Both the position numbers and the translations under genes were made by a program. From positions 1-5,327 of the IMG/VR virus record IMGVR_UViG_3300045988_031517: 5,327 nucleotides of DNA. One strand, given 5' to 3'. This document shows positions 783 through 5,178 of this stretch, one piece after another. This DNA comes from a virus. How positions within the stretch are numbered: the first letter of the stretch is position 1; every line of letters begins with the position of its first letter. The notes beneath the pieces are model-generated. The model had not been told where the DNA came from. It was given only the letters and a program-made list of their open reading frames with translations, and did no database searches.

Positions 783-910
783 TACCCGCTTTTTCCTTGG
801 GTGCCTGTCTCTCTGTCTAGTGGTTGCGGCCGCGTAGCGGACGGAATGCGCGGAGCGGCGGGAACCCATGGGGCGGCGGGCCGTCCGCGCAAACGGATGG
901 AGCCGATCAA
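783..910. other. GC-rich structured island between VP2 and the promoter region. It has nested inverted repeats (GCGGACGG 837-844 / CCGTCCGC 881-888), palindromes GCGGCCGC (826-833) and CCCATGGG (865-872), and direct repeats of GGCGGCGGG (854-862, 872-880).
   Basis: By eye the composition is roughly two-thirds G+C, against a moderately AT-rich genome. No plausible ORF is present: the only ORF through it is antisense and has no RBS. It is followed directly by an A8 run and an AT-rich promoter block. Confidence 0.6.
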
Positions 911-2886: not shown

Positions 2887-3370
2887 TACCTTTTTCGATC
2901 CGGTGGAAGTGAGCACTTCCGCCGGAGATGAGACTCGCGCCGAGTATGTTCTGTCCGTCGGTAAGGACGGACGGAAATGTCTGTCTAAAGTGAGAGACGT
3001 AGACATCAGCGCGGAAATTAACAGCTACGCGCCTGGGTGTGATATGGCTGTGATTTTGAACAAGTTGCAGGCTGGTCTGATCCCAACTGATTACGATGAG
3101 TCTAATTGTGTTGATCTTACCGTTCTTCCAAAAGATGTGGTTGAAGCCATGCAGAAAACACGCGAGTTCCGCGATCAGTTCTCGGATTTTCCGGAAGAGG
3201 TGCAGAAGCTTTTCCAGTATGACGCTAACCTGTTTATGCAGTCGTTCATTGACGGTTCGTTGAATGATGCACTGGCTACCCTTCAGGCTCCGAAGCCTGA
3301 TCCGAAGCCTGATCCGAAGCCTGATCCGAAGCCTGATCCGAAGCCTGATCCGGAACCTAAGAAGGAGTGA
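2852..3370 (+). CDS. VP3: Internal scaffolding-like protein VP3 (172 aa from the ATG at 2852) with a C-terminal (KPDP)n low-complexity tail.
   Basis: AAGGAGG (2839-2845) lies 6 nt before the ATG at 2852. The ORF track's longer version starts at 2798 but lacks an RBS. Size and position (between VP5 and VP1) fit gokushovirus VP3. Acidic stretches, FRDQFSDFPEE, are typical of scaffold proteins. The assignment rests mainly on synteny. Confidence 0.6.
   Translation: MEATMHWKTMYDTFFDPVEVSTSAGDETRAEYVLSVGKDGRKCLSKVRDVDISAEINSYAPGCDMAVILNKLQAGLIPTDYDESNCVDLTVLPKDVVEAMQKTREFRDQFSDFPEEVQKLFQYDANLFMQSFIDGSLNDALATLQAPKPDPKPDPKPDPKPDPKPDPEPKKE
3290..3361 (+). repeat. Tandem 12-nt repeat CCGAAGCCTGAT in 5 perfect copies (3290-3349) plus a degenerate sixth, CCGGAACCTAAG. 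It encodes PKPD x5 (...KPDPKPDPKPDPKPDPKPDPEPKKE) at the VP3 C-terminus.
   Basis: Read directly from the sequence. The repeat is in frame with VP3. Confidence 0.95.
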
Positions 3371-3471
3371 TGTGTTTGGATCTTTTATGGGTTATGATTC
3401 TATTAATTATTTTCGATATCGGTCTCAATGTGGCCGTGTTGACTATGCTTGCCGGAAAGGAGTAATTATTG

Positions 3472-5178
3472 ATGGCATTTTCGAAGAATCTTATTGATTC
3501 GAATAGCTTTTTCAGCTCTTACAAGAGCGACTTGGAACGTCCCCGATCTCGTTTCGATCGAAGCAGCTCCGTTAAGACATCATTCAATGTTGGTGATCTC
3601 GTCCCGTTCTATCTTGACGAGGTTCTCCCTGGTGATACGTTCGATGTCGAGACAAGTTTTGTGACACGTCTTCAGACGCTGATCACGCCACCGATGGATG
3701 ACCTGTTTTTGGATATGTATTACTTTTTCGTTCCTTCTCGTCTCTGCTGGTCTCACTGGAAGGAGTTCATGGGCGAGTCCACTACTAGCTGGACGGCTGA
3801 TGTGACTTACCAGGTTCCGCAGTTGGTTGTAGCAGATAATGCGGCTAATAAAAAAGGTATCCAGGGATCTATTTTGGATTATCTTGGTGTTCCGATTGAC
3901 TGGTTTGGTTCGATGTCTATTTCCCGCCTTCCCATTAATGCCTATAATCTGATCTGGAACGAGTGGTTCCGTGATGAGAATTTGCAGGATGAGATTCTTG
4001 TGGATATTGATGATGGCAATGTGAATTTTGATGTCAACAATTCCGCGAAAGGTGGAAAACTGCTCAAGGTTAATAAGTTGCATGATTATTTTTCTTCTTG
4101 CCTTCCGTCTCCGCAGAAAGGCGATGATGTGACGATCTCGTCTATTTTTGGCGATCTTCCCGTCGTGACGCGGCAGAAAAACGTTGTGAGCGGTGCTCAC
4201 CCGCCTATGTCGTTTCTGCGTGATAATGGTAGTACATTTCCGGAAGCTCGTTGGCTGGCTATTAGCAGTCCGGCTACTATCCTTCCCAATCGTCCGGAAC
4301 CATTTCATAATCTTGTTGCCGGAAAGGATACGCAGGCTAGTAATGGTATTTCTGGTACCAACATTGGCTTGTTTCCGACTAACCTTGTTGCGGATCCGTC
4401 CTCCGCGGATCCTCTGACGGTTAATAGTTTGCGTTTGGCTTTCGCAACTCAGCAGATGCTCGAGACTGACGCTCGTTCCGGTTCTCGTTATGTCGAGCTT
4501 CTTCGCGGTCATTTCGGCGTGATTTCCCCCGACGGTCGCTTACAGCGTCCGGAGCTTCTGAGTGCTAACCGTACTCGGATCAACGTCCATCAGATTGTTC
4601 AGCAGTCCGAGACGGCATCAACTCCGCTTGGTACTACTGCGGCCATGTCTCTTACAAATAATACAGACAATAGTTTCGTTAAGTCCTTCACGGAGCACGG
4701 TTTCGTTATCGGTGTCATGTGCGCTCGCTATAATCACACCTATCAGCAGGGTATCAACCGTCTTTGGTCTCGTAAGGATCGACTGGACTATTATTTCCCG
4801 ATTCTCGCAAATATCGGAGAACAGCCAGTTTATACGAAGGAGTTGTACGCTAAAAGTCTAAACGAGGTTGGTAATCCAGATGGTGGAGTATTCGGTTATC
4901 AGGAAGCTTGGGCTGATTATCGCTACAAGCCGTCTCAGGTCACTGGTGAGATGCGTTCTGGTATCACCAACTCTTTGCAGTCCTGGCATTTCGCCGACTA
5001 TTACCAGAATAAGCCTACACTGAGTTCCGGTTGGATCCAAGAGGATCTGTCCAACGTTGATCGTACACTTGCGGTCACGTCTAAGCTCGCGAATCAGATT
5101 TTTGGAGATTTCTATGTTAAGAATCTGACCACTCGTGTAATGCCGGTTCACAGTATCCCGGGCTTAAGAAAACTGTAA
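3472..5178 (+). CDS. VP1: Major capsid protein VP1 (F-like) of Gokushovirinae. The ATG at 3472 lies 9 nt after AAGGAG. The ORF track's first codon is an in-frame TTG at 3469.
   Basis: 568 aa. The N-terminal block 'RSRFDRSSSVKTSFNVGDLVPFYLDEVLPGDTF' matches the conserved gokushovirus VP1 N-terminus (SFDRS...KTTF..G.L.P...DEVLPGDTF). Its size and large central insertion are typical of gokushovirus capsid proteins. Confidence 0.92.
   Translation: MAFSKNLIDSNSFFSSYKSDLERPRSRFDRSSSVKTSFNVGDLVPFYLDEVLPGDTFDVETSFVTRLQTLITPPMDDLFLDMYYFFVPSRLCWSHWKEFMGESTTSWTADVTYQVPQLVVADNAANKKGIQGSILDYLGVPIDWFGSMSISRLPINAYNLIWNEWFRDENLQDEILVDIDDGNVNFDVNNSAKGGKLLKVNKLHDYFSSCLPSPQKGDDVTISSIFGDLPVVTRQKNVVSGAHPPMSFLRDNGSTFPEARWLAISSPATILPNRPEPFHNLVAGKDTQASNGISGTNIGLFPTNLVADPSSADPLTVNSLRLAFATQQMLETDARSGSRYVELLRGHFGVISPDGRLQRPELLSANRTRINVHQIVQQSETASTPLGTTAAMSLTNNTDNSFVKSFTEHGFVIGVMCARYNHTYQQGINRLWSRKDRLDYYFPILANIGEQPVYTKELYAKSLNEVGNPDGGVFGYQEAWADYRYKPSQVTGEMRSGITNSLQSWHFADYYQNKPTLSSGWIQEDLSNVDRTLAVTSKLANQIFGDFYVKNLTTRVMPVHSIPGLRKL

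Follow-up and report, generated by a model that had tools for sequence, protein, structure and literature searches.

A folded DNA module shared by a gokushovirus and gut Clostridia plasmids: a candidate single-strand origin of a class not found described

The window analysed here is the whole of a 5,327-nucleotide (nt) stretch of virus record IMGVR_UViG_3300045988_031517 of IMG/VR and corresponds to a circular gokushovirus-type microvirus genome of 5186 nt, the first 141 nt of which recur at the end. Directly 3′ of the VP2 stop codon it carries a GC-rich island, the core of which (816-903, + strand) is a copy of a folded module present in more than 200 other contigs, namely circular plasmids of 1.3-4.4 kb, plasmid-like contigs of Lachnospiraceae and Clostridia, and phage contigs of ~75 kb. 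The comparison of these copies leaves hardly any doubt about the homology and the structure of the module, and the island was acquired by the gokushovirus lineage from the plasmid pool of gut Clostridia. We favour, with reasonable though not high confidence, the reading that the module is a single-strand origin (sso), which would start complementary-strand synthesis and would belong to a class that was not found described. The start of the complementary strand is known for phiX174 and the G4 group but is not established for the gokushoviruses that dominate the gut virome, and in microviruses outside those two groups the negative-strand origin is represented only by predicted hairpins (PMC9865509). 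The module is a concrete candidate for such an origin, and homology links it to the place that ssos take in rolling-circle plasmids.

Architecture of the module

The original prediction had singled out a GC-rich palindromic island at 783-910; the observation is partly confirmed by the present analysis, and its interpretation is partly supported and sharpened. The composition was correctly described, as GC content reaches 0.71 at 801-900, against ~0.45 in the genome and 0.22-0.61 in the other 100-nt stretches, and falls to 0.22 in the 100 nt that follow the island. The A8 run at which the island was said to end is present (909-916), but the unit extends from ~790 to ~903-916 and so passes position 910. 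The parts of the module in the window are the following.

790-815, + strand: 5′ leader with a T-run, the CCTTGGGTG motif (795-803) and a pyrimidine-rich linker (alignments)
816-823, + strand: single-stranded junction motif TCTAGTGG (yTAGTGG in the family, or CAGCG in type B)
824-846, + strand: hairpin P3, TTGCGGCCGC-GTA-GCGGACGGAA, closed by T-A and abutting P4
847-859, + strand: 5′ arm of P4, with outer helix 847-853, AG bulge 854-855, inner helix 856-858 and invariant C859
860-880, + strand: terminal loop of 21 nt, GGGAACCCATGGGGCGGCGGG, the family signature
881-891, + strand: 3′ arm of P4, with inner helix 881-883, T884 bulge and outer helix 885-891
892-903, + strand: 3′ junction AACGGATGGAGC (AACGRAyGG in the family, or yAGCGTCCG in type B; alignments A1 and A2)
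904-916, + strand: tail including the A8 run and marking the right-hand limit of the insertion (by eye)

Real copies of the module begin with a CCTTGAyTrCT motif, usually followed by a small hairpin, P2 (GCC-GNA-GGC). Type A copies continue with yTAGTGG and P3, and type B copies with CAGCGTTAA and no P3. P4 comes next, composed of 7 bp, the AG bulge, 3 bp, the invariant C, the 21-nt loop and the returning arm, and 3′ of it stands AACGRAyGG in type A or yAGCGTCCG in type B. The window holds a regular type A copy (TCTAGTGG, P3 at 824-846, P4 at 847-859/881-891, AACGGATGG), in which the leader at 790-815 is the counterpart of the CCTTGAyTrCT motif and the P2 mini-hairpin found elsewhere, P2 itself being missing; the CCTTGGGTG variant without P2 is also found in plasmid L211/L222. 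The junction motif at 816-823, in which alignment A2 shows no variation at A, G, G and G, provides the first positions of the covariance model R1 described below. The tip of P3, GCGTAGC (832-838), corresponds to the GCGNAGC motif of "mini-hairpin DNA". A further helix, P1, in which the T-rich 5′ end would pair with the A-rich 3′ tail, appears well formed by eye in L135, L133, L138 and L128 but not in the phage lineage, where the pairing is doubtful.

Covariation and fold energy

The structure is carried by compensatory changes. The arms of P4 occur as 30 distinct pairs, ~27 of them complementary or nearly so, and the stems of P3 are entirely different across 23 representatives, with P3 still present. 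In alignment A2, which comprises 16 sequences, 16 of 16 base pairs (6 in P3 and 10 in P4) change on both sides, 97.7% of the cells are standard pairs and P4 is 100% paired; none of 500 shuffles did as well, and 30-43% remained paired when the partner was displaced by 1-3 columns. Model R1, built from 16 members and covering P3, P4 and the junctions but not the 5′ region, gave 80 bits for the window over 816-903 and found 84 further copies in plasmids and phages. The larger alignment obtained with it, of 75 distinct sequences, has 96.2% of its cells paired, a value biased towards structure by the fitting of the sequences to the model. RNAalifold on a plain MAFFT alignment recovered almost nothing, and the structure was worked out by anchoring on the loop.

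Fold energy was rejected as evidence for structure, since composition-matched GC-rich shuffles fold nearly as well, and for that reason the structural case rests on comparison. The stable fold that had been expected of the segment as single-stranded DNA (ssDNA) was not borne out: 783-915 gave z = -0.71, with 36 of 200 shuffles as good, and the element proper, 816-903, gave z = -1.59 (14 of 200 shuffles as good). With DNA parameters, the fold of lowest energy for 816-903 consists of exactly P3 and P4, the same as the comparative fold. The repeats reported at the outset do exist, namely the inverted repeat GCGGACGG/CCGTCCGC at 837-844/881-888, the internal palindromes GCGGCCGC (826-833) and CCCATGGG (865-872), and a duplicated block, although the last is an 8-mer (GCGGCGGG at 855-862 and 873-880) and not a 9-mer. 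However, the nested repeat at 837-844/881-888 is not the pairing that is conserved, and it is lost in the closest relative, L001. The compensated pairing is that of 847-853 with 885-891 and of 856-858 with 881-883, plus the separate hairpin at 824-846.

Insertion in one phage lineage

Relatives of the phage were collected by a VP2 scan of IMG/VR (n = 14). Two of them, L001 and L002, carry the island (VP2 99-100% and VP1 segments 89-98% identical), and 11 more distant ones (VP2 69-81%) show the same gene order and no island. What comes directly after the VP2 stop in these 11 is either the nick-type origin hairpin or the promoter of a helix-turn-helix (HTH) gene; the latter arrangement, seen in L011 and L012, marks the insertion point. 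Model R1 gave zero hits in the ten distant relatives searched (L003-L007 and L009-L013). The island is an insertion of ~130 nt specific to one phage lineage, and it separates the VP2 stop from the promoter of the gene downstream. The three phage genomes of that lineage have preserved the fold through compensatory changes: between the window and L001, pair 848:890 turns from G-C into C-G, pair 858:881 turns from G-C into A-T, and the hairpin at 824-846 is swapped for an unrelated perfect hairpin, TTCCAGC-TGTA-GCTGGAA. The same two genomes differ by indels of +1, +1 and -5.

The suggestion that the island is a horizontally acquired fragment agrees with these data, as it is missing from relatives of the same gene order, and plasmids and phages of gut Clostridia share its core and architecture. 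A role as packaging signal is unsupported, and close relatives manage without the island. The original prediction would have read as incidental capture an island that relatives lack and that matches a host sequence. Both are literally the case here, but incidental capture does not follow, because the matched sequence is a conserved covarying module and the phage lineage kept its pairing by compensatory changes.

In two of the relatives, L010 (~4900-4937 plus wrap) and L012 (~4880-4909 plus wrap), the Nextera adapter CTGTCTCTTATACACATCTCCGAGCCCACGAGAC stands as an inverted pair at the contig join; these joins are assembly artefacts, and the genomes are truncated or chimeric there.

Carrier replicons and the single-strand origin position

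A search with the exact 21-mer of the loop, GGGAACCCATGGGGCGGCGGG (860-880), retrieved 111 stretches of IMG/VR, nearly all in contigs of 15-125 kb and most of 40-85 kb, 112 metagenome stretches, mostly from human gut, and 13 stretches of GTDB genomes. The GTDB carriers are Lachnospiraceae, Enterocloster, Blautia, Clostridium porci, other Clostridia and one small Capnocytophaga scaffold; one of the 13, in Streptomyces (L132), was rejected as a chance match lying inside GC-rich DNA that does not fold. Small circular carriers were recognised by the terminal k-mer repeats of metagenome contigs. They include RepL plasmids of 1.39-2.6 kb (L167 and L178 have ~1390 nt), plasmids of 3.4-4.4 kb with a Rep_3 or HTH initiator and a Mob_Pre relaxase, and one with a phage-like Rep. 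The Lachnospiraceae contigs encode ParA, a MobL relaxase, toxin-antitoxin pairs and HTH_36 initiators, and the ~75-kb phage contigs carry anti-repressor, invertase, nuclease and HNH genes, with the module intergenic and co-oriented with its neighbours. The distance to the preceding gene is similar in different contexts. The module of the 4-kb plasmids begins at the mob stop codon, 74 nt ahead of the loop; the upstream gene ends 74 nt ahead of it in L149 (mob) and 78 nt in L135 (rep-like), and the TGA of VP2 lies 78 nt ahead of the loop in the window.

In two pMV158-family rolling-circle plasmids the module occupies the slot of ssoA. L170 is a concatemer of a 1290-nt unit that encodes only a CopG-like protein and RepB (Rep_OBD 2e-43, RepB_C). 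Its double-strand origin (dso) is of the pMV158 type, with the hairpin GGGGGAGT-CACTACGAC-ACTCCCCC followed by GTTCATT iterons, and the module precedes the nick hairpin by ~200 nt, likewise on the nicked strand. The second plasmid, L211/L222, has the copy most similar to that of the window (CCTTGGGTG, no P2, AAACGGATGG) and the order mob, module, nick hairpin GGGGGCACTACGACACCCCC with iterons, promoter, copG and repB. The arrangement in L170 and L211 is that of ssoA. In pE194, where order and strand are the same, the ACTACGA nick is preceded by the RSB of ssoA at a distance of 240 nt and by its CS-6 at 180 nt. In pMV158 two ssos flank the mob cassette (PMC5737340).

The module keeps one orientation within each replicon type: it is sense to RepB, phage-like Rep, VP4 and the majority of Mob_Pre genes, whereas every one of the five or more RepL lineages has it antisense to the RepL gene. 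In the three lineages, and only those, for which the nick strand is known, the strand with the nick hairpin carries the module (CACTACGAC in L170 and L211, and TACTTGAT in the window, where it is the + viral strand).

Very small circular replicons from gut metagenomes are represented by L170, L167 and L178, and L170 contains a second GC-rich repeat, GGCGGACGGACGGATGGACGGACGGATGG...CCGCCCGACCAACCGCCCGACC, between module and dso. Two copies are found in several small plasmids, L150 (1820-2140), L194 (184-916), L214 (1197-1463), L236 (719-1054), L144 and L240, usually inverted and 100-600 nt apart (opposite orientation in L150, L194, L214, L236 and L144); L240, with both copies on one strand, looks like a cointegrate of two RepL plasmids. 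The second copies have a slightly altered loop (GGGTCCCATGGGGCGGCGGG, GGGAACCCATGGGGCGGTGGG or an insertion), and the divergent ones keep CGGG(AA/T)CCCATGGGG. In a subgroup formed by L035 and 11 more IMG/VR loci, and in L169 and L219, the 3′ arm CTGACTTGCC is unpaired with the 5′ arm of P4 and is instead complementary to GGTCAG further upstream; these copies of ~75-kb phages represent either an alternative fold or decayed copies. The Capnocytophaga scaffold (L127, 1371 nt) and Clostridium porci (L137) differ at few positions over the ~130 nt of module and flank, which across Bacteroidota and Clostridia suggests contamination or very recent transfer. In the ~75-kb phage contig L028 (3005-4530) an HNH endonuclease gene (PHROG HNH, 2e-29) overlaps an open reading frame (ORF) of 242 amino acids, in which a putative Cas5/RAMP-like start, IYPLPPFSTVAGMVHFL, was seen by eye. 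An assignment of the ~75-kb phages to Bacteroidetes hosts, drawn from promoter-like motifs, was dropped, several of their genes having GGAGG-type ribosome-binding sites.

Comparison with known origins

The module shares with ssoA of pMV158/pLS1, pE194 and pT181 (palA) a non-coding, orientation-specific region of ~130-200 nt folded as a single strand, the location between mob cassette and dso on the nicked strand, a long hairpin with a conserved signal in its terminal loop together with a conserved 5′ motif, and the behaviour of a cassette shuffled between unrelated replicons. Members of the family carry CTGCCGAAGG, resembling the RSB core TGCCGA(G/A)AA, and TAGCGT or TAGCGG, resembling CS-6. 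Nevertheless, the differences are clear. The loop is G-rich and has 21 nt, whereas CS-6 of ssoA has 6 nt; its two hairpins are stacked and end in GNA mini-hairpins; the module is GC-rich instead of AT-rich; and its hosts are gut Clostridia-type Firmicutes, not staphylococci or streptococci. The window lacks the RSB motif (e.g. TTATGCCGAGAAAATTT) and any RSB-like P2, having neither TGCCGA nor the P2 hairpin, and other members have only CTGCCG(A/C/T)AGG. A CS-6-like GTAGCGG is found in the window at the tip of P3 and not in the main hairpin, P4, the loop of which is a different 21-mer, and TAGCGT is located in P3 of L137 and just 3′ of P4 in type B copies. The RepL plasmid pKKS966 showed no recognisable RSB or CS-6. 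By analogy, the module would work as ssoA-type origins do, to which it corresponds in position, strand, behaviour as a cassette and loop signal, without being a detectable member of that group; the novelty would lie in the sequence and structure class of the sso and in its having reached a microvirus from plasmids.

In the microviruses G4, St-1 and alpha3, whose origins are read by primase, and phiX174, with its PriA (n′) site, complementary-strand origins are likewise groups of hairpins that lie between genes of the viral strand. Mini-hairpins of the GCGNNAGC type, which exclude single-strand-binding protein (SSB), belong to the origins of G4, St-1 and alpha3 (PMC13037366); the island has GCGTAGC. 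The island differs from them in that it has no sequence similarity, sits after VP2 instead of in the F-G intergenic region, and belongs to a single gokushovirus lineage while being common to plasmids. Conjugative and mobilizable elements likewise carry ssos, such as sso1 of ICEBs1, ssoT of pBAA1 and ssiA/ssiB of RSF1010, and in ssos structure matters more than sequence (PMC4595007). Compared without a model, ssoT consists of three separate stem-loops, and ssiA is a single 40-nt hairpin read by a plasmid primase, neither having a 21-nt loop. Small covarying structures on mobile elements are also known among the RNAs of Rfam (e.g. the Transposase-2 motif).

The family merits description whether it acts as DNA or as RNA, for its more than 200 copies share an invariant loop and show textbook covariation, and neither Rfam nor the reference plasmid and phage collections searched contain it. 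No Rfam family matched the window, the island alone or the homologues, either at the gathering threshold or at E <= 10, the best match (Transposase-2, 13.3 bits against a gathering score of 42.7, E = 2.4) being noise; the tRNA/tmRNA scan found none, and the core sequence was not found in a full-text literature search. Other identities were tried and rejected. The terminator scan gave sites only at 59-85 and 2407-2431, and it is A8, not T8, that stands 3′ of the island, which excludes an intrinsic terminator; a MITE-like repeat does not fit 1-2 copies per replicon and none dispersed in chromosomes; and the motifs of HDV-like, twister and hammerhead ribozymes, T-boxes and riboswitches misfit by eye, families that Rfam includes.

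Proposed function and alternative explanations

Among the roles first considered, that of a complementary-strand origin is the best supported, on the comparative grounds that homologues lie in the sso slot on the nicked strand. As in ssos, the module is non-coding with extensive intrastrand pairing, no frame being open across the family and the pairing covarying. Its distribution over RepB, RepL, phage-like Rep and Mob_Pre/MobL plasmids and a microvirus is also that of an sso, the ~75-kb phages excepted, and in the phage it is part of the + strand, the one that is encapsidated. When this strand is packaged or has just been injected, P3 (824-846) and P4 (847-891) would fold as coaxially stacked GC-rich hairpins, flanked by the unpaired conserved strands TAGTGG and AACGGATGG. 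The mini-hairpin tips and GC stems would keep SSB off, exposing the loop and the junctions to a host enzyme that would lay a short RNA primer, to be extended by a DNA polymerase. The priming enzyme could be RNA polymerase, by analogy with ssoA, or a primase, by analogy with G4 or with ssiA of RSF1010.

The phage probably captured the island when its ssDNA intermediates recombined with those of a co-resident plasmid, the RSB of ssos being a known recombination hot spot (PMC5703833). The host range of rolling-circle plasmids is restricted by their ssos (PMC5703833), so the cassette may adapt the phage to a Clostridia-type host, and the host of a carrier replicon could be marked, or even determined, by the module; the genome matches point to Lachnospiraceae and Clostridia. 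The perfect sigma-70-type promoter and the strong Shine-Dalgarno sites of the phage fit such a host. An ssDNA phage and plasmids would then draw on one pool of replication signals. A wider proposal, which we offer only tentatively, is that the module defines a new class of priming signal, a cassette spread over rolling-circle and mobilizable plasmids, a gokushovirus and ~75-kb phages of gut Clostridia, the invariant loop of which is read by one and the same host enzyme. If so, possession of the cassette would set the hosts in which an ssDNA replicon can establish, and the copies of the ~75-kb phages would reveal an unsuspected single-stranded stage or ssDNA-dependent step.

Several observations weigh against an sso. 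About half of the copies are of type B and belong to ~75-kb phage contigs; these phages are presumed to have double-stranded DNA and have no known need of an sso, so their copies are left unexplained by it. A terminator follows the module on the same strand in L135, L126 and L136, where the module is probably transcribed. The relatives of the phage live without the module, and the phage itself keeps another conserved hairpin (1319-1337), which is maybe the native origin; since all of them keep a covarying hairpin beside the + origin, the island could be auxiliary to the phage, or a passenger. The constant orientation within each replicon type may reflect shared ancestry and not constraint, and the invariance of the loop is partly an artefact of the exact 21-mer search. 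With filters off and E <= 10, model R1 found no match in pE194, pNGBS128 (pMV158-like), pRGI00384 or pUL8C, the known ssos compared with it being representatives of ssoA and pWV01-like plasmids only, and BLAST of the island or its homologues against 50,697 phage records and 72,556 plasmids returned only noise.

The alternative that survives best, although we consider it rather unlikely, is that the module acts, alone or in addition, as a structured non-coding RNA (a gene or a 3′-untranslated-region element) whose loop binds a host factor or acts on host RNA; its transcript in the microvirus would form the last part of the VP1-VP2 message. Covariation as strong as this is equally compatible with RNA and ssDNA and cannot by itself separate them, and the RNA fold of 783-915 has z = -2.1. 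The terminators of L135, L126 and L136, the AT-rich promoter-like sequence upstream of the intergenic module in ~75-kb phages, with flanking genes in the same sense, and the start of the module right after a stop codon in three unrelated contexts also speak for a transcript. However, the microvirus module has neither promoter nor terminator of its own, five plasmid-like loci have the module antisense to both neighbours with no evident promoter, and Rfam offers no match even at E <= 10.

DNA is favoured because the carriers are mostly replicons with an ssDNA stage, on which the distribution centres, because the tips are of the C-GNA-G type and because G·T pairs are nearly absent. G·U pairs normally make up several per cent of RNA helices, but only 1 of 256 cells of alignment A2 is a G·T pair, and 4 such pairs occur in the nine inner P4 pairs of the larger alignment. 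Three-nt GNA loops closed by C-G are stable in DNA and not favoured in RNA. GNA triloops, nearly all closed by C-G, form the tips of 15 of 23 P3 hairpins and those of the P2 hairpins that were inspected by eye in the listed sequences. In the window, C-GNA-G hairpins with a stem of at least 4 bp are found only at the P3 tip and at 1319-1337 beside the + origin, with none on the - strand and a shuffle mean of 0.26. Mini-hairpin DNA of the GCGNAGC type is extraordinarily stable and poorly bound by SSB; such mini-hairpins belong to the priming sites of G4, St-1 and alpha3, and ssiA of RSF1010 has one of the form CCGAAGG (PMC13037366), to which the P2 tip of L126 and L135 is identical.

It is improbable that the island is a passenger, a fragment of a plasmid sso brought in by illegitimate recombination of co-resident ssDNA intermediates and useless to the phage. 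The hot-spot nature of RSB (PMC5703833), the relatives with VP2 of 69-81% and the same gene order but neither island nor R1 hit, and the conserved hairpin near the + origin, which could be the phage's own origin, are compatible with it. Nonetheless, the module is complete in all three phage genomes, the VP1 segments of which are 89-98% identical; the P3 stem is wholly replaced between window and L001 and two P4 pairs are changed on both sides with pairing kept; and a size-limited genome of 5.2 kb would be expected to shed ~130 nt of useless DNA.

Still less probable is a DNA site of another kind, such as an origin of transfer, a site of site-specific recombination or multimer resolution, a Rep termination site or a packaging signal. 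The module adjoins relaxase genes in many plasmids and serine recombinase or invertase genes in large phages, and its loop contains the palindrome CCCATGGG; but it lies downstream of mob, whereas MobV-type oriT sites lie upstream, it is found in replicons without relaxase (L170, L167 and the microvirus), and it has no nick motif, the nick-type hairpin of the phage being that at 1257-1286. Stem covariation with an invariant loop is unlike double-stranded protein-binding sites, and the relatives package their DNA without the module. Finally, read-through of VP2 or a small ORF at 801-935 (GTG start, VP2 frame) was rejected and has next to no probability, for although the frame is open 51 codons past the VP2 TGA and the GTG-801 ORF is open in 3 of 3 phage genomes, as GC-rich DNA may be by chance, it lacks the Shine-Dalgarno sequence that is strong in every real gene of the window, a 1-nt deletion in L002 brings a stop into the VP2 frame, the indels between window and L001 are +1, +1 and -5, and the frame of the window is stopped in 35 of 75 distinct family members, no frame being open in all.

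Genome surroundings

All genes of the window are carried by the + strand, and the island is followed by the promoter at 932-960. The features outside the island are listed below.

108-782, + strand: VP2 gene, with TGA stop at 780-782
932-960, + strand: perfect promoter, TTGACA-17-TATAAT, serving the CI-like HTH gene
1005-1250, + strand: CI-like HTH gene (Pfam Phage_CI_repr)
1397-2422, + strand: VP4/Rep
2489-2602, + strand: small basic protein
2599-2886, + strand: ORF
ending at 3370, + strand: VP3
3469-5178, + strand: VP1

The perfect sigma-70 promoter is overlapped by a 22-nt tandem repeat (939-960/961-982, 82% identical), one copy of which is deleted in L002. Among the relatives the HTH gene stands before the origin hairpin, after it, or is absent. 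The perfect 11-bp hairpin AGACCAGTTAC-TACTTGAT-GTAACTGGTCT at 1257-1286 is probably the + strand origin of the phage, since its loop resembles the nick sequence of phiX174, ACTTGAT. It is kept in every relative from L003 to L013, and the segment 1255-1299 is 93-98% identical to the otherwise unrelated microviruses MH572493 and ON840039. Just past it, at 1319-1337, is the 8-bp hairpin TGTCCGTC-GTA-GACGGACA, with a C-GTA-G mini-hairpin tip; the relatives have a hairpin at the same place with other stems, e.g. AGTTATCC-GCTCA-GGATAACT in L004, and its role may be that of a terminator or of the complementary-strand origin native to the family. The C-terminus of VP3 (3290-3360) contains five PDPK repeats, encoded by the 12-nt tandem DNA repeat cctgatccgaag.

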